Positions 6,000 to 54,466 of a stretch of 64,000 nt of DNA are shown piece after piece. Origin of the DNA: Comamonadaceae bacterium (lineage in GTDB: Bacteria; Pseudomonadota; Gammaproteobacteria; Burkholderiales; Burkholderiaceae_C); assembly GCA_947475685.1 (NCBI GenBank), contig CANJNC010000011.1:12361-76360 (forward strand), read 5' to 3'. How positions within the stretch are numbered: the stretch's first letter is position 1; every line of letters begins with the position of its first letter. Made by a program: the position numbers and the translations under genes. Under the pieces are notes generated by a model, which saw nothing but the letters and a program-made list of their open reading frames with translations, searched no databases and was not told where the DNA came from.

Positions 6000-6019
6000 G
6001 ATTTTCTCCGCGTATCAAT

Positions 6020-7585: not shown

Positions 7586-7603
7586 TTGTCATGAAAATGT
7601 CAT
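7586..7603 (+). promoter_or_regulatory. PhoB-box-like site for ppk2
   Basis: TTGTCAT-gaaa-ATGTCAT, then a 10-bp spacer and TATGCT (7614-7619). Confidence 0.8.
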
Positions 7604-7649: not shown

Positions 7650-8561
7650 ATGTCCAAGCAGCAAAACCTAGACGCCACACAGATACTGCGCTTAAGAGAC
7701 GATATTATGGATAGCTTGGATGAAGAGCTAGAAAATGAATTTGAGGATGTGGGTTTTGGAAATCCCGAAAACTATTCTTCCAAAGCCATTGAATTTAGGC
7801 GCTTTTATTTTCGTGAATTGATCAAGCTACAAGGCGAATTGGTCAAGCTGCAAGACTGGGTGGTTGCGAACAAGCACAGAATGGTTATTATTTTTGAAGG
7901 CAGAGATGCTGCGGGCAAGGGTGGCGTCATCAAGCGAATTACGCAGCGCTTAAATCCTCGCATATGCAGAGTAGCGGCCCTACCTGCTCCCAATGACCGG
8001 GAAAGAACTCAATGGTACTTTCAGCGCTATGTTTCCCATTTGCCGGCTGCAGGCGAAATCGTCTTATTTGATAGAAGCTGGTACAACCGTGCAGGCGTGG
8101 AAAGAGTCATGGGTTTTTGCTCAGACGAAGAATACGAGGAGTTTTTTAAATCCGCGCCTGAGTTTGAAAAAATGCTAACAAGAAGCGGTATTCAAATCAT
8201 CAAGTATTGGTTCTCTATTACAGATGATGAGCAGTATGCAAGGTTTTTAGGTCGCATCCATGATCCTTTGAAACAGTGGAAACTCAGTCCCATGGATTTA
8301 GAGAGTCGTCGTCGCTGGGAAGATTACACACGAGCGAAAGAGACGATGATTGAAAGAACGCACATCTTGGAAGCACCTTGGTGGGTTGTTCAAGCGGTGG
8401 ACAAGAAAAAAGCCCGACTCAATTGCATCAGTCACTTGTTGTCTCAAGTCAAGTACACGGAAGTCAATCCACCGGAAATTGTCATGCCCGATCGTGTTAG
8501 AAATCCGAACTACATTCGCCACGCCATGCCCCAAGGGATGATCGTGCCAGAGAACTATTGA
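7650..8561 (+). CDS. ppk2: Polyphosphate kinase 2 (single domain)
   Basis: Walker A EGRDAAGKGG, FDRSWYNRAGVERVMGF, WKLSPMD. Confidence 0.96.
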   Translation: MSKQQNLDATQILRLRDDIMDSLDEELENEFEDVGFGNPENYSSKAIEFRRFYFRELIKLQGELVKLQDWVVANKHRMVIIFEGRDAAGKGGVIKRITQRLNPRICRVAALPAPNDRERTQWYFQRYVSHLPAAGEIVLFDRSWYNRAGVERVMGFCSDEEYEEFFKSAPEFEKMLTRSGIQIIKYWFSITDDEQYARFLGRIHDPLKQWKLSPMDLESRRRWEDYTRAKETMIERTHILEAPWWVVQAVDKKKARLNCISHLLSQVKYTEVNPPEIVMPDRVRNPNYIRHAMPQGMIVPENY

Positions 8562-11833: not shown

Positions 11834-12235
11834 CTAGCTTGTCCATGGATCAATGTGTTGCCAAAGGGCGCAAGACCAAGCGGCTATACAAAAAATTAAA
11901 CTCAACAAGACCGCAGCAGAGCCTAGATCTTTGGCCCTTTTAGAGAGTGCGTGCCAGTCAGCGCCATGTCGATCGATGGCTGATTCGATGGCTGTATTTA
12001 AGAGTTCCACCACCATCACCAAAATGAGCGTGCCAATGAGAAAGCACACCTCAAGCCAATTGGAGCCGAGCCAAAACGCACAGGGCAACAAGGCAACGAA
12101 TACCCAAGCTTCTTGTTGAAACGCGGGCTCATACCAGCCCGCTTTTAATCCTGCCAGTGAAAACCCAAGGGCATGGTAAACACGGCTAAACCCTCGGCGT
12201 TTTTTTTGTGGGTTGAAGTTGTCAGTTTCTTTCAT
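11834..12235 (-). CDS. dgkA: Diacylglycerol kinase
   Basis: EPAFQQE, VELLNTAIESAID, SKRAKDLGSAAV; three TM segments. Confidence 0.95.
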   Translation of the reverse strand: MKETDNFNPQKKRRGFSRVYHALGFSLAGLKAGWYEPAFQQEAWVFVALLPCAFWLGSNWLEVCFLIGTLILVMVVELLNTAIESAIDRHGADWHALSKRAKDLGSAAVLLSLIFCIAAWSCALWQHIDPWTS

Positions 12236-16806: not shown

Positions 16807-16857
16807 TTCATGTCTCTTTGAGGCATGAGGATTGATTTATTTTTTTGTTGAATCTAT

Positions 16858-16912
16858 TGACCGCCAAGCCCAAGAATAACCCATTCATCGGCGAGGGCCT
16901 CAAAAAGAGGAA
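16858..16912 (+). ncRNA. Candidate structured cis element in the ilvI-ilvH spacer (ilvH-motif-like)
   Basis: CGCC(16862-65)/GGCG(16890-93) and GCCC(16868-71)/GGGC(16895-98) give crossing pairings just upstream of the SD. A conserved RNA motif upstream of betaproteobacterial ilvH is recalled from the literature; no covariance search was run. Confidence 0.4.
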
Positions 16913-16918
16913 GCCATT

Positions 16919-17410
16919 TTGAAACACATCATATCTGTACTTTTAGAAAATGAGCCTGGCGCTTTATCGCGTGTGGTGGGATTGTTCTCAGCTCGAGGTT
17001 ACAACATTGAGTCGCTGACGGTTGCTCCCACCGAGGACCCGAGCTTGTCTAGGATGACACTGCAAACTGCGGGTTCGGATGATGTCATTGAGCAAATCAC
17101 CAAGCACTTGAACCGCTTGATTGAAGTGGTCAAGGTCGTTGATTTGACGGAGGGCCCCTATACGGAGCGAGAATTGATGCTTGTCAAAGTTCGCGCCGTT
17201 GGAAAAGAACGTGAAGAGATGAAGAGAATGGCCGATATCTTTCGCGGTCGCATCATCGATGTGACAGACAAGAGCTATACCCTTGAGCTGACGGGCGACC
17301 AAGCCAAGAACGATGCATTTTTGCAAGCCGTTGACAGTACCGCAATTCTTGAGACCGTTCGAACCGGTCCATGTGGTATTGGCAGAGGTGAGCGGATCTT
17401 AAGAGTTTGA
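16919..17410 (+). CDS. ilvH: Acetolactate synthase small regulatory subunit
   Basis: ACT domain LENEPGALSRVVGLFSARGYNIESL; TTG start. Confidence 0.97.
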   Translation: MKHIISVLLENEPGALSRVVGLFSARGYNIESLTVAPTEDPSLSRMTLQTAGSDDVIEQITKHLNRLIEVVKVVDLTEGPYTERELMLVKVRAVGKEREEMKRMADIFRGRIIDVTDKSYTLELTGDQAKNDAFLQAVDSTAILETVRTGPCGIGRGERILRV

Positions 17411-17415
17411 ATTAA

Positions 17416-18459
<1,044 letters not shown>

Positions 18460-18463
18460 TTGC

Positions 18464-18477
18464 CCTTAAGTGTTTGA
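18464..18477 (+). repeat. Left copy of 14-bp direct repeat CCTTAAGTGTTTGA
   Basis: Exact match to 32244-32257; lies 4 bp after the ilvC stop. Confidence 0.85.
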
Positions 18478-18875: not shown

Positions 18876-20195
18876 TTAAATGAAAAGCAGCACGGCAATC
18901 ATCGCTCCTGATAAACAGGTCGAAAGCGTTCCAATCAGCAGGGACTTCGCGCCCATTTGAACGATCTCCCTTTGCCGATCAGGTGCCATGGAGCCTATTC
19001 CTGCAATGACAATGCCTAGACTGCCAAAGTTGGCAAAACCACATAGCAGATAAGTCATTAAAACTCTTGAGTGCTCACTCATTGCATTGGGATTTAATTG
19101 AGAGAGGTCTAGATAAGCGATGAACTCATTCAAGACCAACTTGGTGCCCATCAGTTGCCCTGCAATTTGCGTGTCCTTCCACTCGATTCCAAGGGTCCAT
19201 GAGAAGGGCTGCATCACCCAGCCGATGACGCGTTGGATGGTTAAAGCAGAGCCGTCAAGGTAAGGTAAAAATTCAAGAATGCTATTGCCAAGGGACACCA
19301 GGGCCACCAAAACAATCAACATGGCAATGACACTTGCCAGCAAACGCATGCCTTGAAAGGTGCCATCACTGATGGCATCCATGGTGCTTTGGTATTTTCT
19401 ATGTTTGTCCGTGCTCTGGATCAACGCCATGATGTATGTTTTCAAGCCATGGTTCTTAAGTTCTTGCGCCTCAGATCCTGAGGACGGGCTTTCTTGTAAA
19501 GGAATTTTTGGAATTGCAACCAGACTCAAGACAATGGCCCCTGGCGCACTGATCAAGGATGCGATGATCAAGTGGGTGACCACGTTGGGGACTGAGCTTT
19601 GTAGAAAGCTTGCATAAATCACCAGCACGGTGCCTGAAATGGTTGACATGCCGGTGCTCATGACAACAAACAATTCGGATCTAGAGAGCCCAGCCAAATA
19701 AGGCCTGATAAGTAGAGGTGCCTCAACGATGCCCACAAAAACGGTTGCAATGCTTGCAAAGGATGTAGCGCCCGATACGTTCAGTATCTTGCCAAGCAAC
19801 CAAGCAAAACAACCGATGATCACGGGTAAAACTCGCCAGTAATAAAGGAGTGCTGACAATGCACTGAATATTAAAATCATCGGCAATGCTTGCAAGCCCA
19901 AGATAAAGGACATGCCAGGAGACTTTTCTTCAAAGGGCAGGGGTCCTCCGCCCAAATATCCAAATACAAGCGACGTGCCTGCTTGGGTGGCTTTTTGAAG
20001 TTGAAGGACAGTTTCGTTCAAGGAACTCAAAAAACTTTGGATGAAGGGGACCTTTAAAAGCAGCACAGCCAATACAAATTGAAACAGCAGTCCTTTGAGC
20101 AAGCTGATGAAGTCAATGTGTGAGCGGTTTTCAGACACGCCAATAGTGATCAGTAAGATGATCACAATACCAATCAAAGATTGATAATTTTCCAT
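18876..20195 (-). CDS. nupC: Concentrative nucleoside transporter (NupC/CNT family)
   Basis: FVGIVEAPLLIRPYL, TISGTVL, KLVLNEFIAY, LCGFANFGSLGI. Confidence 0.93.
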   Translation of the reverse strand: MENYQSLIGIVIILLITIGVSENRSHIDFISLLKGLLFQFVLAVLLLKVPFIQSFLSSLNETVLQLQKATQAGTSLVFGYLGGGPLPFEEKSPGMSFILGLQALPMILIFSALSALLYYWRVLPVIIGCFAWLLGKILNVSGATSFASIATVFVGIVEAPLLIRPYLAGLSRSELFVVMSTGMSTISGTVLVIYASFLQSSVPNVVTHLIIASLISAPGAIVLSLVAIPKIPLQESPSSGSEAQELKNHGLKTYIMALIQSTDKHRKYQSTMDAISDGTFQGMRLLASVIAMLIVLVALVSLGNSILEFLPYLDGSALTIQRVIGWVMQPFSWTLGIEWKDTQIAGQLMGTKLVLNEFIAYLDLSQLNPNAMSEHSRVLMTYLLCGFANFGSLGIVIAGIGSMAPDRQREIVQMGAKSLLIGTLSTCLSGAMIAVLLFI

Positions 20196-20236
20196 GTGCA
20201 GGCCTTCGCTTAAAACGATTGAAATTCACCCGTCGC

Positions 20237-21280
20237 TCAAGCGCCCAACCGAATTAAATCATCGTGGGTCAAATGCTCTGTTTGTTGTCCTATCCAACCA
20301 AGCAGTCTAGATTTCCAGTTTAAAAAAGAGGCGGGCGCTTTGACAGCAGTATACTCAAGTCGGCTTTGAGCGCCACGTTTTCGCTTAAAGTCACCTGCAC
20401 CAGAGCTGTAATTGAGCAAAAGTTGGTGCTCTAAAGTGTACTGATAGATGCTAGCAAATAACAGTCGATAGATCCCTGGCTTTGTCTCGCTTTCAAAATA
20501 ACCCAAAGCTGGAACAGTTAAAGTATCCCCAATTTGGTGCAGTAAAGCAAAGGCTACTATCTCCCCTTCTTCATTGATCAAATTCAAACAAGACATCCAT
20601 TTGGTATTGATCATGTCTTTAAAGAATGCGGGTGTGTAATTGGCATTGTAGACACTGTGTTTTTTGATGTAAATGAGTTCATACAAAGACTGAAGGCGCT
20701 CAGCTTGTAGGTCATCAATCAAGTCCATCGATGAGACTTTGAGTTTGGATTTCTTTAAGGCACTTAAGTCTCTTGTGAGATGTGAAGGTTTTACTTTCAT
20801 GCCCATTCGAAGATCGAATTCATAAACTACGCGTGCTGGCAAAGCCACAAAACCTATTTTTTTAAGATCGAGAATCAGTTGCTGGTGTTTATACATCAGC
20901 AAATTTCGAACAAATATAAAAGAACTTAAATGTTGATGTTTAAAAGATTGACACGTCTGAAATAAAGCAGTGTCGTCAGCTGTACGCCATACATTGGTTG
21001 AGATTGGAAAGTTTCCAACAATTGCGTTGTCACTCATGCCAATCGAGTTGGCCAAGTGCGAGAAGATCTTAAGGAGTGCTTTTAAAAAGCAATGGCCTTG
21101 TAGTTCATCTGCTGCGTAGTCAAACCACGCAATTTTTGGCGAAGTGATGTAGCAAGATGCAAAGGGCTTTTGTTTGTGAGTGATGGTGATCGGCAAGGCG
21201 CCAGGCTCCCAGTGGAGTTCTGCGCCCGCATTCACCATCCACTCTTGGAGCGAATGAGCCCAGGGGGCTATTTTCTTCAA
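20237..21280 (-). CDS. Uncharacterised FemAB-like tandem-GNAT protein (347 aa)
   Basis: LYELIYIKKHSVYNANYTPAFF, GEIVAFALL, LGY…GIYRLL and NYSSGAGDFKRKRGA resemble FemAB/DUF482-type GNAT motifs; TTG start overlaps the btaA stop (TTGA). Fold inferred, not searched. Confidence 0.7.
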   Translation of the reverse strand: MKKIAPWAHSLQEWMVNAGAELHWEPGALPITITHKQKPFASCYITSPKIAWFDYAADELQGHCFLKALLKIFSHLANSIGMSDNAIVGNFPISTNVWRTADDTALFQTCQSFKHQHLSSFIFVRNLLMYKHQQLILDLKKIGFVALPARVVYEFDLRMGMKVKPSHLTRDLSALKKSKLKVSSMDLIDDLQAERLQSLYELIYIKKHSVYNANYTPAFFKDMINTKWMSCLNLINEEGEIVAFALLHQIGDTLTVPALGYFESETKPGIYRLLFASIYQYTLEHQLLLNYSSGAGDFKRKRGAQSRLEYTAVKAPASFLNWKSRLLGWIGQQTEHLTHDDLIRLGA

Positions 21281-22518
21281 TGGTTGAATCTATACAAATG
21301 CAACGCGCCATAGATTCCTGAGCGATCTTGCGGACCCAAGGAGTCAGAGATTTGATGGTCTCTTGTCCACTGATCGGCCAGGGGTCCTGTCAAACAAGCA
21401 TCAACAGGCGATTGAGAGCCAGCCGTTCTGAAGATGACCCTTGCACCTGGTTTGGCCGCTTGGGTGATGGCTGTCCATACGGCAGTCAATTCATGAGGTG
21501 TCATCCAATCTTGAGCATCTAAAAGGTTCACAATATCAACTGATTGGGGGCCTAGGTTGATCAGCTTATCTCTGATGTTGTTGTGCTCAATTGAAATTTT
21601 GTGAACGCAGTCACGTAAAAAAGCATAATTTTCTTTAACCAAATATGGCGGAAGCGCACTTTGACCCGACTCATCGTATTTTCTTGCATAGGCTTGCCAA
21701 GCAAAATAGTTGTCCTTGATTGGTACAACAGTGGCCAATTGTCTAGCTCTTTGTTTTAAGATTTCTGACATTTGTTCTGGCTTGTTGTCACACAAAGCCA
21801 AGTGCTGACTTGGAGGAATACCAAGGTTGTACAAAGCGTAAGGACTGCTGCAAATTTTAGTAACCAGTCTAGAGTCGAAAATCTTAGCGACTTTTTGGTC
21901 AAACCAAATCTTTTGATCTTCAACAGTTTTTTGCTCTAAAAGTTCAGACAATTTCACGCCATGTAATTTTGCCCCCATGTGGATAATTCCAATGATCTGA
22001 CCGAGCAGACCGTATTTGTAAAAACCTTTGGCAAACATTTGAATCCTCTTGGATCCAAACGGTCCGCTTTCCCAGTACGCTCGGCTTTCTTGATCCAATT
22101 GAGGTGAAATGATCGCATTGTAGATTCTGACATTGCTCGTTGATTTTGCAATGCCAAAAAATCTAAAGAAGTCTTCGTGGTACTCCAGTGTTTTGAGCGC
22201 TGCAATTTTCAAGTGATTCAAAGCAATGTGAGCATGATTGAGATCCACAACGGAAATTTTTGCGGGATTTGCCATCAAATAGGACAAGGCGTTGCACCCG
22301 CCAGAGGCAATGGTGAGCATGTGATCGGTGCTTTTGATCTGTAAGGCATTCATGTCCACCATAGGGTCTTCCCAAATTTGTGTATAAACCAAGCGATCGA
22401 ACCACATTGCAAAAATTTTATCTTTCAGCGTTGTTTTGGATTTGTGTCCAAAAACTGCGTTGTTCAACAGTACTTTTGATTTCTTTAGGCTGAGTGTTGG
22501 ACTTGAAGTTGTATTCAT
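21277..22518 (-). CDS. btaA: BtaA: SAM:diacylglycerol 3-amino-3-carboxypropyltransferase (DUF3419)
   Basis: LVYTQIWEDP, TIASGGCNALSYL, NYFAWQAYAR, LLDAQDWM, ARVIFRTA, DRSGIYGALHLY; 413 aa, full length relative to alphaproteobacterial BtaA. Confidence 0.88.
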   Translation of the reverse strand: MNTTSSPTLSLKKSKVLLNNAVFGHKSKTTLKDKIFAMWFDRLVYTQIWEDPMVDMNALQIKSTDHMLTIASGGCNALSYLMANPAKISVVDLNHAHIALNHLKIAALKTLEYHEDFFRFFGIAKSTSNVRIYNAIISPQLDQESRAYWESGPFGSKRIQMFAKGFYKYGLLGQIIGIIHMGAKLHGVKLSELLEQKTVEDQKIWFDQKVAKIFDSRLVTKICSSPYALYNLGIPPSQHLALCDNKPEQMSEILKQRARQLATVVPIKDNYFAWQAYARKYDESGQSALPPYLVKENYAFLRDCVHKISIEHNNIRDKLINLGPQSVDIVNLLDAQDWMTPHELTAVWTAITQAAKPGARVIFRTAGSQSPVDACLTGPLADQWTRDHQISDSLGPQDRSGIYGALHLYRFNH

Positions 22519-22594
22519 GAGTGAAAAAAATCCCTATGGATGAAGATATGTATCCAATTGTGGATCACTAATATTTCATTTGAATGTTACTTTT

Positions 22595-22612
22595 ATTACT
22601 TTTTAGTGACTT
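22595..22612 (-). promoter_or_regulatory. Weak PhoB-box-like site upstream of btaA
   Basis: Minus strand AAGTCAC-taaa-AAGTAAT; no clean -10 at 10 bp. Confidence 0.35.
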
Positions 22613-22696
22613 AACAATTTTTATCAACTTCAACATTCAAGGCTTGGACAGATCGTTGCGATCGTTTTTTTAAAATTTAAGCACATAAGATTCAAA

Positions 22697-22714
22697 ATGT
22701 CACAAACCTTTAAT
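22697..22714 (+). promoter_or_regulatory. PhoB-box-like site for the TPAT-NPP operon
   Basis: ATGTCAC-aaac-CTTTAAT, then a 10-bp spacer and TAATAT (22725-22730). Confidence 0.7.
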
Positions 22715-22742
22715 GTGCAAAAGGTAATATATTTGCAAAATA

Positions 22743-23654
22743 ATGGACACAAAAATGTCAAATTCAGTTGTAAAAAAAAGCATCTTTATTTTCTGGGCAA
22801 TGACTGTACTTTTAGCAACGCCTGGTTGTGCAATCAACACCTTTGTAGTCGATCAAGTGGCAAAGAACCTTGTATCAGAGGATGACCATGAACAAGATCT
22901 ATTTTTAGCTCGGGATGCCAGTCCTTTTTATTTAAAGTTGACAGAAAATTTATTGATCCGTTCGCCCGCAAATTTAAACTTGGCACAAGCCGTTTGCAGT
23001 GGTTTTACACAGTATGCATATACATTTATTGCATTTGAAGCAGAAAAAATTGAAGGCAGTGACTACAAGCGTGCAGAGGTCTTAAGAGAGAGGGCCTCCA
23101 AGATGTATGCGCGTGCATTCAATCATGGGATGAAAGCATTGGATTTGAAGTTCAGTGGTTTTGGTGCAAAGCTTAAAGCCTCAGGCAATATGGACCCTAA
23201 AGTTATACCATCAACAGATGTAGGACTTCTTTATTGGACGGCGGCTTCTTTGGGCGGTTGGATATCAACCGCCAAGGACATGCCGGACTTGGTTGCAGAT
23301 TTCCCCATTGCCCTTCGTTTAGCGCATTTGGCGTGGCAAATAGATCCGTCCTATTCTCAAGGTTCTTTGGCAAGCCTCATGGGTAACTTTGAGTGGGCCA
23401 ACCCGAACGGATCAAAGCCATTGGCAACACAATATTTCGATTGGGCAATTCAATATTCAAAAGATCAAAATGCAGGTCCCTTTGTCTCCAAAGCAGAAAA
23501 GGTTGCTGTGGCAATGAAAGACAGGCGAATGTTTGAAAAACTTCTCAATCAAGCAAAAGAGATCGCTCAAAAATACCCAAATTTACAAAATGAGGCCATG
23601 CGTTTGCGTGCACAATGGTTACTTGAAAACGAAGACGAGCTTTTTGAAAGTTGA
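22743..23654 (+). CDS. TRAP-associated TPR lipoprotein (TatT component of a TPAT system)
   Basis: Lipoprotein-like signal (…LATPG-C), AVCSGFTQYAYTF, LLYWTAASLGGWIS helical TPR-like repeats; immediately upstream of DctP. Start may be ATG 22755. Confidence 0.85.
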   Translation: MDTKMSNSVVKKSIFIFWAMTVLLATPGCAINTFVVDQVAKNLVSEDDHEQDLFLARDASPFYLKLTENLLIRSPANLNLAQAVCSGFTQYAYTFIAFEAEKIEGSDYKRAEVLRERASKMYARAFNHGMKALDLKFSGFGAKLKASGNMDPKVIPSTDVGLLYWTAASLGGWISTAKDMPDLVADFPIALRLAHLAWQIDPSYSQGSLASLMGNFEWANPNGSKPLATQYFDWAIQYSKDQNAGPFVSKAEKVAVAMKDRRMFEKLLNQAKEIAQKYPNLQNEAMRLRAQWLLENEDELFES

Positions 23655-24673
23655 AGATGAACTTAAACCGATTGGTCCGAATTTTTTCATGTTTGGTTTT
23701 TCTTGCTTTTGCAAGTTCAAGCTTTGCAGCGGACAAGCCCTTGAGGATGGGGACACTGGCACCCAAGAACTCTCTTTATTACAGACAACTCATTGAAGTC
23801 GCTGAGGCGTGGAAAGGTGCCGCAGGGGGTAATTCAAAGTACACCGTGTACGCAGACGGTAGCCAAGGAGGAGAGACAGAGCTTGCCAGAAGGATGCGAA
23901 TTGGGCAACTGCAAGGCGCGCTCTTGTCAGTGGTGGGTTTGAAGGAAATTGAACCCTCTATCAGTGCATTGCAGTCCATGCCCTTGCTTTTTAAAAGCTG
24001 GGAAGAGCTTGATTTCGTTCGGGAAAAGATGCGTCCTGGCATGGAGAAGAAATTTCTTGAAAAGGGATTTGTTGTCTTGGCTTGGGGAGATGCAGGCTGG
24101 GTCAGGTTCTTTTCAAAGGAGCCGGCTTTTAAGCCAGATGATTATAAAAAGATGAAGTTTTTTTCCTGGGGAGGGGAGCCCGAACAGCAAGAGATCATGA
24201 AGAGCTTGGGCTATACGCCCGTTCCTTTGGAGACGACAGATATTTTACCGTCTATACAAACGGGCATGATTTCTGTGGTTCCCTCTACACCGTATTTTGC
24301 AATGGCCAGTCAAATCTACAACACAGCCAACAACATGCTTGAGATCAATTGGGCACCGGTCGTTGGAGCTTTGGTGATCACTAAAAAAGCATGGGATGAG
24401 ATGAGTCCTTCAACCCAAGAAGCGGTTCGATCGGCTGGCGACAAGGCGGGAGATCAAATCAGGATCAAAGCCCGCCTAGAAGTTGAAGAGGCGGTAGAGG
24501 CCATGAAAAAGAGAGGTTTGATTGTGAACAAACCCTCGCCAGAGCAAATGAAAGAGTGGAACACCCTTGCTGCAAACTTGTACCCCAGGATTAGGGGAGC
24601 AATGGTCCCGGCAGAAACGTTTGATGAAGTTTTCAAACATTTAAATACATACAGAGCTGGCAAGCAAAAGTGA
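23651..24673 (+). CDS. dctP: TRAP solute-binding protein (DctP/TatP type)
   Basis: LRMGTLAPKNS, RMRIGQLQGALL, PVPLETTDILPSIQTGMI; 4-bp overlap with TatT. Confidence 0.92.
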   Translation: MKMNLNRLVRIFSCLVFLAFASSSFAADKPLRMGTLAPKNSLYYRQLIEVAEAWKGAAGGNSKYTVYADGSQGGETELARRMRIGQLQGALLSVVGLKEIEPSISALQSMPLLFKSWEELDFVREKMRPGMEKKFLEKGFVVLAWGDAGWVRFFSKEPAFKPDDYKKMKFFSWGGEPEQQEIMKSLGYTPVPLETTDILPSIQTGMISVVPSTPYFAMASQIYNTANNMLEINWAPVVGALVITKKAWDEMSPSTQEAVRSAGDKAGDQIRIKARLEVEEAVEAMKKRGLIVNKPSPEQMKEWNTLAANLYPRIRGAMVPAETFDEVFKHLNTYRAGKQK

Positions 24674-26451
24674 AATTGAATCAAATCAAACTGGATGAAA
24701 TTATTTCATCCCTAGCCTTGATTTTAATGGCAATCATTCCAGTGATTGAAATCCTTGCCCGTCCAGTACTTGGCAAAGGTATTGAAAACGCTCCAATTTT
24801 GGTTCAACACTTTGGGCTTGTGATGTCCATGTTTGGGGCCATTGCAGCTTATCGTTTTGGACATCTTTCAAGTATTGGCGTTATATTCAACTCGTTTAAG
24901 ATTCCTGCACGAATCTTATCGAGTTTAATCTGTGGCTTATTGTGCTGGGCGTGTTGGCATTTTGTGAGCACTGAAAGATCGGCCAATCAAATGTTGGCTT
25001 ATTCAATACCTTTGTGGATTTTACAATTGGTCATGCCAATTGGATTCTTGCTCTTGAGTTGGCAAATCGTCTCTGAGGGTTTGAATTTATTTTTATCTAA
25101 AGCCGTTGCAATTTTAAGCGTGAGCGTCATTAGTTATTTGCTTTTTCAGTTTTTTGAATCAAATGCAACGTCGATATGGCCCATGCTGTTGATTTTGGTG
25201 GTTATGTTTTTAGGCGGTGCACCCATATTTTCCATCATTGCCGCTTTGGCTTTGGGATTGTTTTTGCAAGATGGTTTGCCACTGTCCTCTGTGGCTTTGT
25301 CGCATTATCAAATCACGGTCAACCCATCGTTGCCTGCGTTGCCCTTATTTACGCTGGCTGGGTTGGTTTTTGCATCGACCGGGTCGGCCAAGCGTTTAGG
25401 GCTGTTATTCATGGCTGTGTTTGGCACGGGTGTCAGAGGGACCGTGTTTGCAACAACCGTTTTATGCTCATTTTTCACGGCCTTTACTGGAGGCAGTGGG
25501 GTGACCATTTTGGCGCTTGGAGGCTTGTTGCTCCAACTGTTAAGTGACACTGGATATTCGAAAAAAAGAGGGATTAGTCTTGTGACCAGTGCGAGTGCCC
25601 TTGGTGTTTTATTGGCACCTTCTGTACCACTGATCATGTATGCGATTATTGCTCGCGTACCGATCAACGATATGTTTTTGGCAGGTCTTGTGCCAGCATT
25701 GGTCATGGTCTTGTCATTGTTGGTATTTGGTGGATATCTAAAGAAGGAAAATCAATTTGAAGCAAAAGAGCATGTCCATGCTTTTTCATGGTTGAGATTA
25801 AAGCAGGCGAGTTGGGATGCAAAATGGGAAATTTTGACGCCATTTGTTGCTATAGGTTCCCTGGTCAGTGGGTTTGCAACGCCTACTGAAAGCGCTGCGA
25901 TTACAGCCGTTTATGCCATCGTCACTCAAATGATCTTTAACCGAGAATTGAGTTTGGAGCAATTTAAACACTCATTGCTTAAGTGCACACAAATTATTGG
26001 GGGTGTCATGTTGGTCCTTGGCATGGCATTGGGCATGACCAATTACTTAATTGATGCGGGAATTCCTGACCTGGCAATCCAATGGGTTCAGGGCATCACG
26101 AGCAATAGATATGTTTTCTTGCTTGCGCTTAATGTATTTTTATTTTTTGCTGGTGCGCTGATGGAAATTTACGCAGCCATCGTTGTATTGGTGCCCTTGT
26201 TGTTGCCCTTGGCGCTGTCTTATGATATTCATCCGATTCATTTTGGCATTATCTTTTTGGCCAATATGGAGATGGGATTTTTATGTCCACCTGCGGGCAT
26301 GAATATATATTTCGCATCCGCTGTATTTAACCAACCTTTAAAGGATGTGGCCCTCTCCATTTGGCCAGCATTGATTGCTATTTTTATCGGAACTGTTATT
26401 ATTTCTTGGCTTCCGTTACTGAGCACTGGCTTGCCTCAGTTTTTCAAATGA
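24670..26451 (+). CDS. dctM: Fused TRAP small+large permease (DctQM)
   Basis: 593-aa polytopic protein; ALPLFTLAG, AFTGGSGVT, LLAPSVPLIMYAI, ATPTESAA, HPIHFGIIFLANME…CPP. Confidence 0.92.
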   Translation: MKLNQIKLDEIISSLALILMAIIPVIEILARPVLGKGIENAPILVQHFGLVMSMFGAIAAYRFGHLSSIGVIFNSFKIPARILSSLICGLLCWACWHFVSTERSANQMLAYSIPLWILQLVMPIGFLLLSWQIVSEGLNLFLSKAVAILSVSVISYLLFQFFESNATSIWPMLLILVVMFLGGAPIFSIIAALALGLFLQDGLPLSSVALSHYQITVNPSLPALPLFTLAGLVFASTGSAKRLGLLFMAVFGTGVRGTVFATTVLCSFFTAFTGGSGVTILALGGLLLQLLSDTGYSKKRGISLVTSASALGVLLAPSVPLIMYAIIARVPINDMFLAGLVPALVMVLSLLVFGGYLKKENQFEAKEHVHAFSWLRLKQASWDAKWEILTPFVAIGSLVSGFATPTESAAITAVYAIVTQMIFNRELSLEQFKHSLLKCTQIIGGVMLVLGMALGMTNYLIDAGIPDLAIQWVQGITSNRYVFLLALNVFLFFAGALMEIYAAIVVLVPLLLPLALSYDIHPIHFGIIFLANMEMGFLCPPAGMNIYFASAVFNQPLKDVALSIWPALIAIFIGTVIISWLPLLSTGLPQFFK

Positions 26452-26476
26452 TCTCACTCTACCTTAGGCATTTAGA

Positions 26477-27709
26477 TTGATTAGTCGGCGCTCACTTCAA
26501 CACTTGTTGATTATTTGTTTAGTCAACTGCATGTGCACTTTGGCTTTAAATAGCTTTGCACAAAGTAAAACTCCTCCAAAACCGCTGGTGCTTCTCATTG
26601 GAATTGATGGTTTTAAACCAAGTTACTTGACACTGGGTGTGACACCTCGATTAAAGTCCTTGGCGCAATCTGGCGTTCTTGCAAAGGGTTCTATTTCTGC
26701 ATTTCCATCTTTGACGTTTCCAAACTTTGTGAGTTTGGTGACGGGTCTAACGCCTGATCACCATGGAATTGTGAACAACACCATGACCGATCCAGCAACC
26801 GATCAACTCTTTACTTTGAGTTCAAGAGAGGCCGTTGAGAATCCCTTTTGGTGGACGAAAACCACTCCCATTTGGACCAACTTGAGACAACAAGGCGGTA
26901 TAGCCTCTGCTATGTTTTGGCCTGGTTCTGAGGTTGAAATCAACGGCAGTCGCCCCAACGACTGGGTGCGATATGAGCATGGCATGTCACACGAAAGAAG
27001 GCTTGAATATTTGGTGTCTTGGTTGTCCAGAGGAGAGACTTTAAGACCCAATCTTGCAACACTTTATCTCTCTGATGTTGACTCTGCTGGGCATGAGTTT
27101 GGGCCAGACAGTGAACAAGTTAGGGATGCAGTTGCAAAGGTCGATCAGACTATTGGAGCATTAATCGATGCAATTTCAAACTTGGGATTAAAGGAGAGAA
27201 CGACCTTTGTACTTGTTTCTGACCATGGTATGGCCAGTACGCCTGCGGCCAAGTCCATCGATGTCAGTCAATTACTAAAAGATTTTCCAAAAGCCAAATG
27301 GGAGTGGCAAGGTGCAACTTCTGCTGTCAGACTCAATGGTGAAAATGGATTGCAAGTTCTAAATGTACTGTCTCAGCAATCCAATCTTGATTGTTATGAG
27401 AAAGGTAAGTTGCCGCAAAGCTTTAAGTTTGGTACCCACCCAAGAATTCCAGAGATCGTTTGCGTGTCCAAAATGGGTTACACCGTTACAGCCAACCCTT
27501 ACCGCAAGGGGCCGCTTGGTCAACATGGGTTTGACCCTCTGTTGACTGAAATGCATGGACTCTTTTTGGCATCAGGCCACCGGATCAAACCTGGCGAATT
27601 GGGCTTGATCGAGAACATCGAGGTTTACCCACTCTTATGCCAACTGCTCGGTATTCTTGAGCAAAAAAACGATTCCAAGCACCTCTTAAAAGACATCGTT
27701 TTGAATTAA
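26477..27709 (+). CDS. Nucleotide pyrophosphatase/phosphodiesterase (NPP, alkaline phosphatase superfamily), exported
   Basis: GIDG, PSLTFPN (Thr nucleophile), DVDSAGH, SDHGM, GQHGFD; N-terminal signal with SRRSL. Confidence 0.92.
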   Translation: MISRRSLQHLLIICLVNCMCTLALNSFAQSKTPPKPLVLLIGIDGFKPSYLTLGVTPRLKSLAQSGVLAKGSISAFPSLTFPNFVSLVTGLTPDHHGIVNNTMTDPATDQLFTLSSREAVENPFWWTKTTPIWTNLRQQGGIASAMFWPGSEVEINGSRPNDWVRYEHGMSHERRLEYLVSWLSRGETLRPNLATLYLSDVDSAGHEFGPDSEQVRDAVAKVDQTIGALIDAISNLGLKERTTFVLVSDHGMASTPAAKSIDVSQLLKDFPKAKWEWQGATSAVRLNGENGLQVLNVLSQQSNLDCYEKGKLPQSFKFGTHPRIPEIVCVSKMGYTVTANPYRKGPLGQHGFDPLLTEMHGLFLASGHRIKPGELGLIENIEVYPLLCQLLGILEQKNDSKHLLKDIVLN

Positions 27710-27730
27710 TCCTTGTTTAGTTTATCAGTT

Positions 27731-27757
27731 AAAAAGGCACCAAATGAGTGCCTTTTT
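27731..27757 (+). terminator. Terminator after NPP
   Basis: AAAAAGGCAC-caaatga-GTGCCTTTTT. Confidence 0.8.
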
Positions 27758-27865
27758 CTATTTGCGAGAAAAATTATTTAATTTGATATTAAAGTTTTAT
27801 TTATTTTTGTGGTTTTTGTGTTTTTGACTTTAAGAATGAATTATTTTAACTAGGGTAATCCATGG

Positions 27866-27883
27866 ATGTCACAAGAATGTAAC
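27866..27883 (+). promoter_or_regulatory. PhoB-box-like site for exbD-tonB-TBDR-exbB
   Basis: ATGTCAC-aaga-ATGTAAC, then a 10-bp spacer and CACAAT (27894-27899). Confidence 0.8.
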
Positions 27884-27905
27884 TTAGTTTTCGCACAATG
27901 ACTTG

Positions 27906-28355
27906 ATGCGCAGATTCCCTTACCAAGCTAGGAAAAAGTCACGAATTGAAATCATTCCAATGATTGATGTGATGATGTTTTTACTGGTTTTCTTTGTGCT
28001 CATTAGCATCAATGTGATTCCCGCTTTGGGCATCAAGATGAATTTGCCCAGCTCCAATTCTGTCAAAGAGGAGCATCCACCCATTCGTGTCATCTTAAGC
28101 ATATCAGCTGATGGGTCTTATCAGCTTGATGGGCAAAGCTTTGCTTCGCTTGAGAGCTTAAAGTCGGCCTTATTGGGTCTTAAACATCAAAACGAAGCCA
28201 AGTCCAGTCAAAACGCCTTGATCAATTCAAGTCCCCGCCTCGCAGTCATTATCAATGGAGATGAGCAGTCTCCACTACAGCGTTTGGTGGATGTCATGGA
28301 CATGCTCAAGTCAAGTGGCATTGATTCAATGACCATTGCGTCAAAGAAAAAATAA
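27906..28355 (+). CDS. exbD: ExbD/TolR biopolymer transport protein
   Basis: IEIIPMIDVMMFLLVFFVL (TM Asp), VIINGD…LVDVMDML. Confidence 0.93.
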   Translation: MRRFPYQARKKSRIEIIPMIDVMMFLLVFFVLISINVIPALGIKMNLPSSNSVKEEHPPIRVILSISADGSYQLDGQSFASLESLKSALLGLKHQNEAKSSQNALINSSPRLAVIINGDEQSPLQRLVDVMDMLKSSGIDSMTIASKKK

Positions 28356-28360
28356 AAGAT

Positions 28361-29062
28361 ATGAATGCGGCGCTTCAATGGACTTATGAAAAAAGAGACC
28401 CCATCTCTTTTGTCAGCGCATTTCTTTTGGGATTGTTGGTTTTGTTGCTGATTCAAGTATCTGCAATCAATTTTTCAAAAAACGCTGATGTTGAAATGAC
28501 GGCTTTCATTGAATCGCCTCCTGTGCCTGAAATCATCAAACCACTCGAACCCATTAAGAAGGTGATCGAGAAACAAGAAATCCAAAAGAGAGCGGAGCCT
28601 GTGATGCCAAAGCAGGTCACCTCTCCTTTTGCAACCGAAGCGCCCAAAGAAGCCAAGCACGTCGAGACCCCAGTGCCCCTGGAAAAACCTCAAGTCCTTC
28701 AAGCACCTCAACACATCACGCCTCCTGCGCCTGTTCCATCTGCTCAACCTGTACCTTCAACTGCAAGTATTTACGAAGCTCAGTTGAGATCTTATTTGGA
28801 GAAGATCAAACGCTATCCCACCATTCGAGAGGCGCGACTCACCAGACCACAGGGTGCTGTTCGTGTTTGGTTGGAGATTTCTAGAAACGGGCAGGTCCTA
28901 GGCGTGGGTGTCATGACGTCATCGGGCTCGAATTTATTGGATGGAGAGGCTTTGAAAACCTTGAAAACCGGTTCGTATCCTGCTTTTCCTGAGGATGCGT
29001 ATGTTGGTGAAAATGCCCATAAGTTTTCTGCAACCCTTAATTACACCCTTGAGCCTCAATGA
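28361..29062 (+). CDS. tonB: TonB energy transducer
   Basis: N-terminal TM, Pro/Glu/Lys-rich linker, C-terminal RYP…PQGAVRVWLEISRNG…SSGSNLLD. Confidence 0.92.
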   Translation: MNAALQWTYEKRDPISFVSAFLLGLLVLLLIQVSAINFSKNADVEMTAFIESPPVPEIIKPLEPIKKVIEKQEIQKRAEPVMPKQVTSPFATEAPKEAKHVETPVPLEKPQVLQAPQHITPPAPVPSAQPVPSTASIYEAQLRSYLEKIKRYPTIREARLTRPQGAVRVWLEISRNGQVLGVGVMTSSGSNLLDGEALKTLKTGSYPAFPEDAYVGENAHKFSATLNYTLEPQ

Positions 29063-29130
29063 ATTGAGGGTTTGGTTGCAACAGTTTTGTTTTTTGAGAT
29101 TTTAAAGTTCAATTATTTTTAGGAGAAAAA

Positions 29131-31524
29131 ATGAAGAAGTCGAATCGTGTTTTCCAACTGTCCTTGTTGAGCATTGCTCTTTTGAGCACGGGATATTTTT
29201 CATCCGCCATGGCGCAAAAGGCGCCTACCGATGTGGGTACCGTCAAAATCACGGGTGAGGGTGATGCATTGGGCAATGGGCTTTTGATTGATGAAGACGG
29301 TGTAAAAACAAAAAGCACTGTTACAAAAGCTTCGATTGACAAAGAGCGTCCAACCGCCAATGCATATCAAGTTTTGAACTTGATGCCCAGTGTCAATGCA
29401 TCGAGCTACGATGCCACAGGACTTTTTGGCGGGAATTTAAGAGTGAGAGGTTTTAACAGTGATCAAATGGGTTTCACCATCAATGGCGCTCCTGTCAATG
29501 ACTCTGGTAACTTTGCCATCTATCCACAAGAGTATTCTGATATTGAGAACATGTGCGAAGTCTTCATTACACAAGGATCTGTGGACACCGATGCACCCCA
29601 TGTAGGCGCCTCAGGCGGTAATGTTGGCATGGTGAGTTGTTCACCCAAGGACAAATTTGGCGGTAAGTTTTCCGGCTCATTGGGCGATTTGAACTTCAAG
29701 CGTTCCTTTTTGCGACTTGATACCGGTTTAATAGGCAAGGAGCATCCCTTTAAAGCCTTTATCTCCTACTCGGCTGCTTCAGTTGATAAATTCAAAGGGC
29801 TTGGTGGCGCCAATCGCCATCACACAGATGTTGGTTTAGATTGGAAGCTGACCGATAACACAACATTGACATCCAACTTACTTTACAACTTTGCTGTAAA
29901 TAATAATTTTTTGACTCTGACCAAAGCGGAGTTTGCTCAAAATCAAAACCTTGATTTCAGCTCCACGGTACCTCAGCACCTGGCATCGGGCTCGGAGAAC
30001 ACCACTGCCAATTTTGGTACCAGCAGCGCTGGTGCAACGCCAAGAACCAAGTTGGCTTACTACAACTACTCTTTGAATCCATTTGAGAACTATCTCTTCA
30101 CCTCACGTTTGCAAACTCGAGTTGATGATAAATTGACCCTGAGTGCAGAGCCCTATTTTTGGTACGGTTATGGCACTGGTGGTACTCAGCAGACAACGCT
30201 TGCCGAATCAAGCACTGGATTTCGCGCAGGGATTGCAGATATCAACAAAAATGGCAATACAACCGACACAGTCGGTATCTACAGAGGAAGTGTGACCGAG
30301 ACGAACCGCCCAGGCATTACATTCAAAGCCAATTACGACCTAGGCGATCACAAGATTTTGGCCGGATTGTGGATGGAGCAAGCTCGTCATCGTCAAACTC
30401 AGCCTGCGACCACCATGGACAACAGTGGAACTGTTTCTGACCTTTGGCTAAGAAATAATTTATTGAAATACAACGATGGTAGTTTGTATGAGGGTAGAAA
30501 TTACAAAACCGTATCCACTGCTTACTCCTTGTTCTTACAAGACACGATTTCCATGGGTCGCTTGGACGTCGTTCCTGGTGTGAGATTTTCTTCCATCAAG
30601 CGTGACTTTACCAACTACGCATCAAGTGGATCTGGCTTAGGAGCAGATTATTCTACTGACAGAACATTCACCAAACCTTTGATGTCTTTAGGTGCGCGTT
30701 ACAAAATCGACGACTCATTGCAAGCTTACGCAAACGTTTCACAAAATTTGCGTGCCCCGTCTAATTTTGTCTTGGCAGGCTGGGTCACTGGCGGAACGTA
30801 TGCCAATGGCGCATTGACTGGATATAAACTTGTTGCTAACAACTCCATTCAAGCTGAGACATCGGTTGCGACTGAGGCTGGTCTGCGTATCACTGAGGGA
30901 GATGTCAAAGGATCAGTTTCATTGTTCCAAGTCAACTTCAAGAATCGAATTGCTCAAGGATTCAATCCTGACACGGCCACTTACACTGACTACAACGTTG
31001 GGGACTCGACCATCAAGGGTTTAGAGCTGCAAATGGGCACCAAGCCCGTCAACGGTTGGAGTGTGTTTGGTTCTGCAACGTACACGCAAAGCACAATCTC
31101 TAACAACTTTCCCGCAACGGCAACAAGCACCTTGCCCACTGCTGGCGCCACGTTCCCTGACACACCTCAGTGGATGTATGCTGCCTCTGTGCAATACGCT
31201 TCTGGCCCTTATCTCGCGTCCTTGTCTGGTAAGTACACGGGCAAGCGTTACACCACACTGGTCAACGACGAGTTCTTAGATGCCTATACGGTGTTTGACT
31301 TGAATGCGGGCTATCGCTTTGACAATGGTGCTTTCTTCAAGAGCCCAACAGTGCGTTTGAATGTGAGTAATTTGTTCAACAAGAACTATTTGATTGCCAA
31401 TTCTGGAAGTGGCTCAAACATCACCACCTCCACAACGGCAGCCAGTTCACAAGGCGGTGGTTTTCCAAGCTACTATGTTGGAGCGCCCAGGTTTGTCAGC
31501 ATGTCTTTTAGCTCAGACTTCTAA
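29131..31524 (+). CDS. TonB-dependent outer membrane receptor (797 aa)
   Basis: Signal peptide, TonB-box-like DVGTVKITG, plug NLRVRGF…DGFTING-like segment, beta-barrel periodicity, terminal Phe (SSDF). Confidence 0.94.
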   Translation: MKKSNRVFQLSLLSIALLSTGYFSSAMAQKAPTDVGTVKITGEGDALGNGLLIDEDGVKTKSTVTKASIDKERPTANAYQVLNLMPSVNASSYDATGLFGGNLRVRGFNSDQMGFTINGAPVNDSGNFAIYPQEYSDIENMCEVFITQGSVDTDAPHVGASGGNVGMVSCSPKDKFGGKFSGSLGDLNFKRSFLRLDTGLIGKEHPFKAFISYSAASVDKFKGLGGANRHHTDVGLDWKLTDNTTLTSNLLYNFAVNNNFLTLTKAEFAQNQNLDFSSTVPQHLASGSENTTANFGTSSAGATPRTKLAYYNYSLNPFENYLFTSRLQTRVDDKLTLSAEPYFWYGYGTGGTQQTTLAESSTGFRAGIADINKNGNTTDTVGIYRGSVTETNRPGITFKANYDLGDHKILAGLWMEQARHRQTQPATTMDNSGTVSDLWLRNNLLKYNDGSLYEGRNYKTVSTAYSLFLQDTISMGRLDVVPGVRFSSIKRDFTNYASSGSGLGADYSTDRTFTKPLMSLGARYKIDDSLQAYANVSQNLRAPSNFVLAGWVTGGTYANGALTGYKLVANNSIQAETSVATEAGLRITEGDVKGSVSLFQVNFKNRIAQGFNPDTATYTDYNVGDSTIKGLELQMGTKPVNGWSVFGSATYTQSTISNNFPATATSTLPTAGATFPDTPQWMYAASVQYASGPYLASLSGKYTGKRYTTLVNDEFLDAYTVFDLNAGYRFDNGAFFKSPTVRLNVSNLFNKNYLIANSGSGSNITTSTTAASSQGGGFPSYYVGAPRFVSMSFSSDF

Positions 31525-31530
31525 AAGTTC

Positions 31531-32091
31531 ATGACTGAGTTTTTACACCAAGCCTCATTTGGGCTGATGATCATCTCTGCCATCATTGCAACCGTGGTGA
31601 GTGTGGAGAGGATCATCTTCTCCAGTATGAATCTCAAGCGTGCAAAACTTTTGACAGCCAGCATCGACACACAAAGAGGCTCTATGGGGTCTTTGTTGGG
31701 CCAAGATGTGGTGTCTGAAATGGTGCAAAAACTCTTGGACGATAAGGCTCAAAACTTTGCACCTGCTGTTCAACAAGACAGGGCTGACGCCGCATTTATT
31801 CACGCAAAAGATGAATTGGGCGATAGACTTTGGATGCTTGACACGATTGTGACCGCAGCGCCATTGATGGGGCTCTTGGGGACCATTTTTGGCATTGTGG
31901 ATACCTTCTTGGCACTTTCCAAGTCCGGTATGTCTGACCCCGCGGGGGTCAGTGCAGGCATTGGAACGGCTCTTTACGCCACAGCTCTGGGGATTTCTAT
32001 TGCTTTGATAGGCCTTTTTGCCTTTAACTTTTTGAGTGACCGCAATGAGAGAATAGGTGAGCATTTGAAGATGTTGATTTTGCGTCTTTAA
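31531..32091 (+). CDS. exbB: ExbB/MotA/TolQ proton channel
   Basis: TIVTAAPLMGLLGTIFGI, GIGTALYATALGI. Confidence 0.92.
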   Translation: MTEFLHQASFGLMIISAIIATVVSVERIIFSSMNLKRAKLLTASIDTQRGSMGSLLGQDVVSEMVQKLLDDKAQNFAPAVQQDRADAAFIHAKDELGDRLWMLDTIVTAAPLMGLLGTIFGIVDTFLALSKSGMSDPAGVSAGIGTALYATALGISIALIGLFAFNFLSDRNERIGEHLKMLILRL

Positions 32092-32117
32092 GCTTCAACC
32101 TTTGATGAGGCACACCC

Positions 32118-32157
32118 GCCGCTAACTGGATCTTGAGCCAGTTGGCGGCCTTTTTTT
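32118..32157 (+). terminator. Terminator after exbB
   Basis: GCCGCTAACTGG-atcttgag-CCAGTTGGCGGC then T7. Confidence 0.85.
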
Positions 32158-32243
32158 ATGTGTTCGATCAGCCCATTCCTTCATTGGGGTGAGTTTTCTG
32201 CGCTTTGTGCTCAATGGGGTTCCCTTTGAGGGCTTCAAATTTA

Positions 32244-32257
32244 CCTTAAGTGTTTGA
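32244..32257 (+). repeat. Right copy of 14-bp direct repeat CCTTAAGTGTTTGA
   Basis: Exact match to 18464-18477; 94 bp upstream of the psd start. Confidence 0.85.
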
Positions 32258-54439: not shown

Positions 54440-54466
54440 GGTTTTTAAACAATCTTGTGCTGGCGT

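Follow-up and report, generated by a model that had tools for sequence, protein, structure and literature searches.

A gene island between ilvC and psd with predicted Pho control in a freshwater Comamonadaceae bacterium

Do neighboring operons that all seem to be concerned with phosphorus make up one pathway, or does each serve its own purpose? This question is raised by a block of 11 genes at positions 18876-32091 of a 64,000-nucleotide stretch of DNA from a Comamonadaceae bacterium (contig CANJNC010000011.1; "the window" below means this whole stretch). The block, here called the island, comprises a btaA operon, an operon for a transporter of the TPAT family together with a periplasmic nucleotide pyrophosphatase/phosphodiesterase (NPP), and a cassette for a TonB-dependent outer-membrane transporter (TBDR) together with ExbD, TonB, and ExbB. 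An earlier note on this DNA had suggested that the three units may form a single pathway, for which it offered nucleotide mining and lipid remodelling as competing models. Our analysis favors another answer: the island is probably a co-regulated toolkit of three PhoB-regulon modules with two parallel functions, membrane renovation and phosphoester scavenging, and not a linear pathway. The two models would then run in parallel instead of competing, each covering a subset of the genes.

A dctQM-anchored scan of genome contigs (80 loci), followed by tblastn with all island proteins, recovered the full block at ilvC/psd in only 5 loci (L009, L010, L011, L044, and L047), where ilvC is 96-97% identical; three metagenome contigs (L109-L111) add to the carriers, all of which have an ilvC of 96-99% identity. 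Within this sub-clade the block has been kept intact though the island proteins have diverged to 64-76% identity. At the other dctQM loci, conservation extends to tatT-dctP-dctQM only, with NPP, nupC, and the TBDR cassette never adjacent. We also sampled 400 other genomes of the order evenly across 168 genera, among which 36 carry the BtaA family, 18 TatT, and 11 an orthologue of the TBDR. None of the 400 has all three units and none combines TatT with the TBDR, while BtaA and the TBDR meet in two genomes, both of a single genus, and lie on separate contigs there. Likewise, a TBDR orthologue was found in 0 of 16 TPAT-positive genomes outside the clade. The earlier note had suggested looking for the block in other genomes and had reasoned that the idea of one pathway would fail if the units assorted independently and responded to different signals. 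Since no genome of the sample holds all three units and TatT never accompanies the TBDR, the units do assort independently; the block is confined to near relatives, and the single pathway finds no support. Different signals are not what we found, given two conserved Pho boxes and the Pho- and lipid-related gene neighborhoods described below. We therefore picture the block as a composite insertion in one sub-clade, made of modules that would be separate members of the PhoB regulon in other Burkholderiales.

Layout of the island and its insertion site

The 11 genes were confirmed by open reading frame calling together with Pfam and NCBIfam scans. The features of the island and its borders are as follows (window positions):

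18459-18477, plus strand: left direct-repeat copy ATTGCCCTTAAGTGTTTGA, overlapping the ilvC stop codon
18876-20195, minus strand: nupC, concentrative nucleoside transporter of the CNT family (Pfam), last gene of the btaA operon
20237-21280, minus strand: orf347, tandem-GNAT protein (AlphaFold2 model and Foldseek)
21277-22518, minus strand: btaA-like gene (DUF3419; PF11899, E=9e-98)
22562-22612, no strand, non-coding: 11-bp-periodic array of degenerate Pho half-sites in the btaA-tatT spacer, conserved in the clade
22697-22730, plus strand: tatT promoter, with Pho box ATGTCACAAACCTTTAAT (22697-22714), 10-nt spacer, and TAATAT (22725-22730)
22743-23654, plus strand: tatT, T component of TPAT (PF16811, E=3e-46)
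23651-24673, plus strand: dctP, periplasmic solute-binding protein of the TatP(T) type (PF03480, NF037995)
24670-26451, plus strand: fused dctQM, with DctQ and DctM domains (TIGR00786 score exceeds the cut-off)
26477-27709, plus strand: NPP, periplasmic nucleotide pyrophosphatase/phosphodiesterase with signal peptide (PF01663, E=3e-80)
27732-27756, plus strand: hairpin and T-run closing the TPAT-NPP operon, read from the sequence and not listed by a consensus terminator scan
27866-27899, plus strand: exbD promoter, with Pho box ATGTCACAAGAATGTAAC (27866-27883), 10-nt spacer, and CACAAT (27894-27899)
27903-28355, plus strand: exbD (PF02472)
28361-29062, plus strand: tonB (TonB_C)
29131-31524, plus strand: TBDR, with plug and barrel domains
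31531-32091, plus strand: exbB (PF01618)
32118-32149, plus strand: strong intrinsic terminator of the TonB cassette (12-pair stem with 8 GC pairs, T-run)
32239-32257, plus strand: right direct-repeat copy ATTTACCTTAAGTGTTTGA in the psd upstream region

In this freshwater Burkholderiales genome, the three units follow ilvB-ilvH-ilvC (15019-18459, plus strand) and precede psd, pssA, and leuA. The first unit is btaA-orf347-nupC on the minus strand, with a 4-nt overlap between btaA and orf347 and a gap of 41 nt between orf347 and nupC; the second is tatT-dctP-dctQM-NPP on the plus strand, with 4-nt overlaps between its first three genes and a gap of 25 nt before NPP; the third, also on the plus strand, is exbD-tonB-TBDR-exbB. 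The gene content described in the earlier note thus stands, and its layout has to be redrawn at two points: nupC belongs to the btaA operon instead of standing alone, and NPP ends the TPAT operon.

The block is a real insertion of 13.8 kb at an ancestral ilvC/psd junction. In 10 relatives (7 congeners and 3 from other families) the island is absent and ilvC directly adjoins psd; the spacing of the two genes is 0-280 nt in the congeners, with none of twelve genes in between. The block has a GC content of 42-45%, compared to 47-50% in the flanks, so that it shows both the empty site in relatives and the deviant composition by which mobile islands are recognized. The direct repeat at its borders, to which the earlier note had pointed, is less telling. 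Its two copies are identical at 17 of 19 positions, with an exact core of 14 nt, and by our estimate chance would yield about 0.5 exact 14-mer pairs in 17 kb. L009 and L047 keep the repeat in part, both conserving the right copy, and the left copy of L009 holds 12 of 14 core positions. The repeat is absent in L010, L011, and L044, which all carry the island (three of five relatives), and open reading frame and Pfam scans between 18460 and 32350 found no integrase gene, no transposase gene, and no tRNA target. With such patchy conservation, no integrase, and the number of pairs expected by chance, the repeat is weak evidence and only suggestive of an island boundary. We dropped the idea that the 14-nt repeat is a target-site duplication because three of five relatives have not conserved it and no integrase accompanies it; it may be a remnant.

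Pho boxes of the three units

We searched for Pho boxes with the motif WTGTCAY-N4-WTGTCAY, followed by a -10 hexamer 10 nt further on, which we derived from the promoters of pstS and ppx in this genome (contig C10). Genome-wide, this motif has 3 perfect and 23 one-mismatch matches. The box of exbD, ATGTCACAAGAATGTAAC, has one mismatch and lies 38 nt ahead of the start codon in all members of the clade that carry the island; it recurs at the same 38-nt position in locus L095, in an unrelated context and ahead of an exbD of 65% identity. Such positional conservation goes beyond chance. The distance between box and -10 element places the predicted transcript start about the start codon, so that the exbD transcript would begin at or near this codon and would apparently be leaderless. 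The box of tatT, ATGTCACAAACCTTTAAT, has three mismatches; its first half-site is perfect, its second is degenerate, and the position of the box is conserved in the clade. Upstream of tatT at TPAT loci of other genera, a site with at most two mismatches lies within 340 nt in 39 of 71 cases (55%), compared to 97 of 2000 random 340-nt windows (4.9%). The tatT, exbD, and pstS promoters share a common geometry of box, 10 nt, and -10 element, and the architecture of PhoB-regulon promoters, in which the box stands in place of the -35 element about 10 nt from the -10 element, is present at exbD and tatT.

The btaA promoter is less clear. Its best single site, with two mismatches, lies on the plus strand (22573-22590) and hence in the wrong orientation, and the best site on the minus strand has three (22595-22612); sites with two mismatches as at btaA arise in about 5% of random 340-nt windows. 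Nonetheless, the half-site array at 22562-22612 is strongly conserved across six clade sequences and is a candidate PhoB site for btaA, and btaA genes of other lineages have good Pho boxes. The statement of the earlier note that all three units have Pho-like boxes thus holds strongly for exbD and by a conserved half-site for tatT, and the btaA box is as weak as it had said. Two further matches were set aside: a one-mismatch Pho-like match upstream of tatT in L011 was discarded as a false positive, since it runs into the conserved start codon, and a one-mismatch match at 25700 within dctQM was taken as chance.

Other Pho boxes lie in the window to the left of the island. Three tandem repeats (TTGTCATTGTTTAGTCATTGAATTGTCAT, 3330-3358) form two overlapping one-mismatch sites in a 1.2-kb, AT-rich and gene-poor stretch with a GC content of 0.39; no convincing plus-strand open reading frame lies downstream of them, and they may drive a Pho-controlled small RNA or small peptide. 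A perfect Pho box (7586-7603) stands between a pair of phoA genes (4548-7492, minus strand) and ppk2 (7650-8561, plus strand). A third protein of the alkaline phosphatase family, with 686 amino acids and 28-32% identity to the phoA pair, is encoded at 57214-59274 on the plus strand.

Predicted functions of the modules

BtaAB is known from Rhodobacter and rhizobia. From its sequence, the BtaA-like protein of the island is a putative S-adenosylmethionine:diacylglycerol 3-amino-3-carboxypropyl transferase; it shares 40-43% identity with the products of btaA genes in genomes G173 and G257 that precede a gene for a btaB-like methyltransferase. This order, with the methyltransferase in the canonical btaB position, is found in G173 and G257 (42% identical) and in G370. 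In contrast, the island btaA lacks BtaB both next to it and genome-wide: tblastn of the window's genome with three btaB-like proteins from btaA loci gave only a weak 43-residue match. A tandem GNAT protein, orf347, stands there instead. It is found directly downstream of btaA for 5 of the 8 nearest BtaA homologues of our sample and for none of the distant ones, and orf347 homologues adjoin DUF3419 in every context examined. Judged by gene order, btaA and orf347 are a conserved pair in which orf347 occupies the place of btaB.

Homologues of orf347 form 129 clusters, all unnamed, some of which match PF13480. The protein itself has no Pfam match above threshold (Acetyltransf_6, PF13480, E=0.056; LPG_synthase_C, PF09924, E=0.15), while its AlphaFold2 model has a pLDDT of 91.7 and a pTM of 0.90. 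In Foldseek searches with this model, 4v36, 5vrv, 4v34, MprF, FemX, and Sbb17 were the top matches, and L-PGS, A-PGS, MprF, FemX, and Sbb17 dominated the top 30; peptide synthases that depend on aminoacyl-tRNA are thus among the matches. As modeled, the fold of orf347 is a tandem GNAT like that of aminoacyl-phosphatidylglycerol (PG) synthases and FemX. It is shared with the catalytic domains of MprF and aminoacyl-PG synthases and with FemX (4v36, 4v34, 5vrv, 7duw, and 1ne9) at a probability of 1.00, E values of about 1e-10, and TM-scores of 0.5-0.6 over the whole protein. Compared to these enzymes, orf347 has only 10-15% sequence identity, stays below threshold for PF09924, lacks a membrane flippase domain, and has BtaA as its partner instead of phosphatidylglycerol or peptidoglycan. 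An invariant basic motif in orf347, SSGAGDFKRKRG, is compatible with a site for CoA or for a tRNA phosphate. The window encodes one more Fem-type GNAT close to Pho genes: a FemAB_like/DUF482 protein (PF04339, E=3e-132) at 8563-9753 (minus strand), convergent with ppk2.

Lipid remodelling under phosphorus stress by PlcP/Agt and OlsBA has been described before (Sebastián et al. 2016, PMC4796936). The island resembles such PlcP/Agt, OlsBA, and BtaAB systems in having a BtaA (DUF3419) homologue, and in other lineages btaA-orf347 lies beside olsB, PlcP-like, and glycosyltransferase genes with Pho boxes near. In three independent contexts, the neighbors of btaA and orf347 are genes for an OlsB-like protein (PF13444), a PlcP-like metallophosphoesterase, a GT4 or monogalactosyldiacylglycerol synthase, PhoU, PPK2, and CorA. 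As in PlcP/OlsBA systems, the window's genome also has an olsB-plcP-GT4 operon that adjoins pst, ppk, and ppx; it belongs to a Pho hub at C10:28656-42426 with pstSCAB-phoU-phoB-phoR, ppx, a histidine phosphatase, ppk1, GT4, a plcP-like gene, and olsB. We suggest that BtaA would make diacylglyceryl-homoserine from diacylglycerol and S-adenosylmethionine and that the soluble orf347 would modify this lipid in place of methylation by BtaB, most likely by aminoacylation or acylation of the free amine. Because BtaB is missing and a Fem-like GNAT has taken its place, the product is probably not diacylglyceryl-trimethylhomoserine (DGTS). In the btaA lipid cluster of L089 (11106-11648) and L147 (17254-17796), a 180-amino-acid protein with no Pfam family is encoded between the orf347 homologue orf344 and olsB.

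The last gene of this operon, nupC, has all three CNT Pfam domains (Nucleos_tra2_N, Gate, and Nucleos_tra2_C) and scores 304.6 against the TIGR00804 cut-off of 442. Its nearest homologues outside the clade are 61% identical and have ArnT-like and PAP2/TPR genes as neighbors, without a Pho or lipid link, and linkage to the island genes is seen in this clade only. We therefore dropped nupC as a conserved partner. We also considered that NupC might handle the methylthioadenosine by-product of BtaA and found nothing in support.

The TPAT operon resembles the TPAT of Treponema pallidum (Tp0956/Tp0957/TatQM; PMC5812351, PMC11713862) in that a single operon holds TatT (PF16811), a TatP(T)-like solute-binding protein, and a fused QM component. 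T. pallidum TatT (Tp0956) is the sole sequence match of the island TatT in the PDB (E=7e-15), and Tp0957 TatP(T) (3u65/4di3) is the best match of its DctP (E=3e-22). TatT has a lipobox-like motif (...ATPGC), and the solute-binding protein has a signal site of signal peptidase I type (...SFA|AD) with no obvious lipobox, which distinguishes it from known TPAT systems. The tatT start codon called at ATG 22743 aligns with TTG in relatives and ATG 22755 is conserved in all of them, so the true start is likely the latter. Further differences from known TPAT systems are the Pho-box promoter of the island operon and its terminal NPP gene. In addition, the TPAT of freshwater Burkholderiales is embedded in a hub of pst/phoBR-ppk2-olsBA-plcP genes. 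By clustering of open reading frames from the 80 loci, the typical order in Limnohabitans is pstA-pstB-phoU-phoB-phoR, corA-dgkA-ppk2, tatT-dctP-dctQM, olsA, and olsB-plcP-GT4, with ppk and ppx near. Among 41 well-flanked TPAT loci outside the clade, olsA, olsB, plcP, or btaA lies within 10 kb at 25 and pst, phoUBR, ppk, ppx, or ppk2 genes are found at 24. We found no report of such a Pho or lipid-remodelling context for TPAT in the literature searched. To our knowledge, work on TPAT has so far covered in vitro fatty-acid binding only and no physiological role.

According to Zhai et al. (2023, as cited in PMC11713862), TatT proteins bind long-chain fatty acids, and a fatty-acid-binding TatT of Enhygromyxa salina has been described (PMC5812351, PMC11713862). 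From the published binding of palmitate to TatT and from the gene context, we would expect TPAT to import a hydrophobic carboxylate, for example a long-chain fatty acid. About 27 Limnohabitans-type loci have ppk2 next to TPAT in divergent orientation, along with dgkA and corA, and in these relatives the TPAT operon is inserted in a hub equivalent to that on contig C10. The window's own ppk2 and dgkA (11834-12235) are found 10-15 kb left of the island.

The NPP protein has Xanthomonas NPP (2gsn) as its closest PDB match (E=8e-80, full length). It shares with this Xanthomonas axonopodis enzyme the catalytic threonine motif PSLTFPN with the nucleophile, the metal-site motifs including DxxGH, and an export signal; unlike the Xanthomonas gene, the island gene is the last of a TRAP operon and lies directly upstream of a TonB cassette with a Pho box. 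The lipid-type enzymes ENPP6, ENPP7, and ENPP2 match less well (E of 1e-38 to 1e-45), and ENPP1, ENPP3, ENPP4, and ENPP5 are nearer, so that by sequence the NPP classifies as a nucleotide-type enzyme. It never adjoins TPAT in about 70 TPAT loci outside the clade. A metagenome scan with NPP returned three close relatives of one clade, and the other matches were 25-38% identical in uninformative contexts.

Pho-regulated exbB2-exbD2-tonB genes are known from Pseudomonas aeruginosa, and phosphorus-regulated SusCD-like systems have been described in Bacteroidetes (PMC8115612). The island cassette resembles such Pho-regulated TonB loci in that a TBDR with its own ExbBD-TonB is placed under a Pho box and adjoins a periplasmic phosphoesterase. 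It differs from them in its fixed order, an apparently leaderless first gene, and the lack of a SusD-like partner. The four genes exbD-tonB-TBDR-exbB are conserved as a unit in this order. Of 17 contexts, 6 have the cassette or a TBDR of 40-47% identity beside NPP (in the window clade and, as a pair, in L097), a 5'-nucleotidase (L096, L151, and L152), or PhoD together with an NPP-family protein (L153); other flanks are lipid-remodelling clusters (L095 and L147) and a PhoBR-like two-component pair (L149). The TBDR has no PDB sequence match at 1e-10, and its NCBIfam matches are to siderophore and haem families only, far below their cut-offs, so no substrate can be assigned from them. Two of these loci are candidate organophosphate-uptake loci: in L153 (G306:C23) the cassette is followed by genes for a PhoD-like phosphatase and a 712-amino-acid NPP-family protein, and in L152 (G044:C1) a TBDR without flanking exbBD-tonB is followed by genes for a 5'-nucleotidase and a Sel1 protein and adjoins ppk1 and phoR. 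For the island, we propose that the leaderless, Pho-driven cassette would take up, through the outer membrane, a phosphoester too big to pass through porins, that the periplasmic nucleotide-type NPP would cleave it, and that the two PhoA enzymes encoded elsewhere in the window would release inorganic phosphate (Pi). NupC may then salvage the nucleoside, which is the weakest link of this proposal.

Parallel functions, single pathways, or a shared address

Several observations weigh against separate modules with parallel functions. The operon wiring crosses the two functions, with NPP in the TPAT operon and nupC in that of btaA; this is the main point that our reading leaves unexplained, and it could reflect a real functional coupling that is invisible to comparative genomics. 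The argument for Pho control of the island is one from motifs and gene context alone, and the btaA promoter in the btaA-tatT spacer holds no convincing, correctly oriented Pho box. Pairs of units also meet elsewhere. BtaA is enriched among genomes with TatT (9 of 18, compared to 27 of 382; Fisher p=4e-6 in statistics that ignore phylogeny), in three genera only and with the genes never adjacent. TPAT and btaA-orf347 are adjacent in two Limnohabitans loci (L016 and L020). In the L089/L147 lineage, which has the nearest BtaA outside the clade (77%) and a TBDR (72%) among the nearest outside it, btaA-orf344 lies about 9.5 kb from the TBDR cassette. Finally, an NPP homologue of 47% identity is divergent from btaA in G173, which makes these two a recurring pair.

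Some of these encounters are what lipid remodelling as a single pathway would lead one to expect. In this model, phospholipid-derived diesters of exogenous or own origin would enter through the TBDR and be cleaved by NPP, TPAT would recover the lipid or fatty acid, and BtaA with orf347 would build a phosphorus-free lipid. The co-transcription of NPP with TPAT across their short gap speaks for it, as do the binding of long-chain fatty acids by TatT, the TBDR cassettes in or beside lipid-remodelling clusters (L095 and L147), the adjacency of btaA-orf347 and TPAT in L016 and L020, and the lipid activity of some eukaryotic NPPs (ENPP2, ENPP6, and ENPP7). The island NPP, however, is far closer to the nucleotide type than to these three enzymes and is never seen beside TPAT outside the clade, where TPAT and TBDR never occur together either, and we consider this route improbable. 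What remains of the model are the btaA-orf347 pair and TPAT, while the cleavage of phospholipid-derived diesters by NPP finds no support. Nucleotide mining as the one pathway is more doubtful still. Here the TBDR would import nucleotides, NPP and PhoA would release Pi, NupC would take up the nucleoside, and TPAT, btaA, and orf347 would have to serve the same route. The nucleotide-type NPP, the homologues of the TBDR beside NPP, 5'-nucleotidase, or PhoD, the presence of nupC within the block, and the perfect Pho box of the nearby phoA pair fit this idea, and the parts played by NPP and the TBDR survive our analysis. Yet TPAT and btaA-orf347 sit in lipid-remodelling clusters elsewhere, BtaA and the TBDR hardly ever share a genome, and nupC is linked to the block in this clade only. 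The deaminase operon into which NupC might feed according to the earlier note (53129-55276) encodes an amidohydrolase and a deaminase of CDA type; more than 20 kb separate it from the island, and neither comparative evidence nor anything else links the two. The PhoA enzymes that the earlier note had enlisted lie outside the block, next to ppk2.

At the other extreme, successive insertions at a permissive intergenic site could have produced a fortuitous cluster whose members share an address and no co-regulation. The lack of an integrase, the weakness of both the bounding repeat and the btaA box, and the fact that the units assort independently would all agree with this. The Pho boxes of exbD and tatT are nevertheless conserved in position and have the correct geometry, other lineages have each of the units in a neighborhood of Pho or lipid-remodelling genes, and the block has stayed intact across the sub-clade in spite of the divergence of its proteins, which makes mere coincidence the least likely of these explanations. 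We thus keep to a co-regulated set of three modules with two parallel functions. A bolder extension of this reading, which we put forward tentatively and with less than even chances of being right, is that the TPAT of freshwater Betaproteobacteria may be a core, PhoB-controlled part of membrane renovation under phosphorus stress that imports fatty acids or lipid fragments, that BtaA and a soluble Fem-like transferase may make a phosphorus-free aminolipid not yet described (diacylglyceryl-homoserine carrying an aminoacyl or N-acyl group), and that the island may package both with a Pho-driven TonB importer for nucleotides.

For the biology of these bacteria, the position of TPAT in a Pho and lipid hub of abundant lake bacteria (Limnohabitans, Comamonadaceae, and Rhodocyclales) suggests Pi starvation as the condition under which its substrate should be sought. 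The replacement of btaB by an aminoacyl-PG-synthase/Fem-like enzyme as the partner of btaA predicts a new class of phosphorus-free lipids. A TBDR cassette with a Pho box that is repeatedly found near NPP, 5'-nucleotidase, and PhoD points to TonB-powered uptake of organophosphates in Betaproteobacteria. All three leads concern the ways in which the bacterioplankton of fresh waters deal with a shortage of phosphorus.

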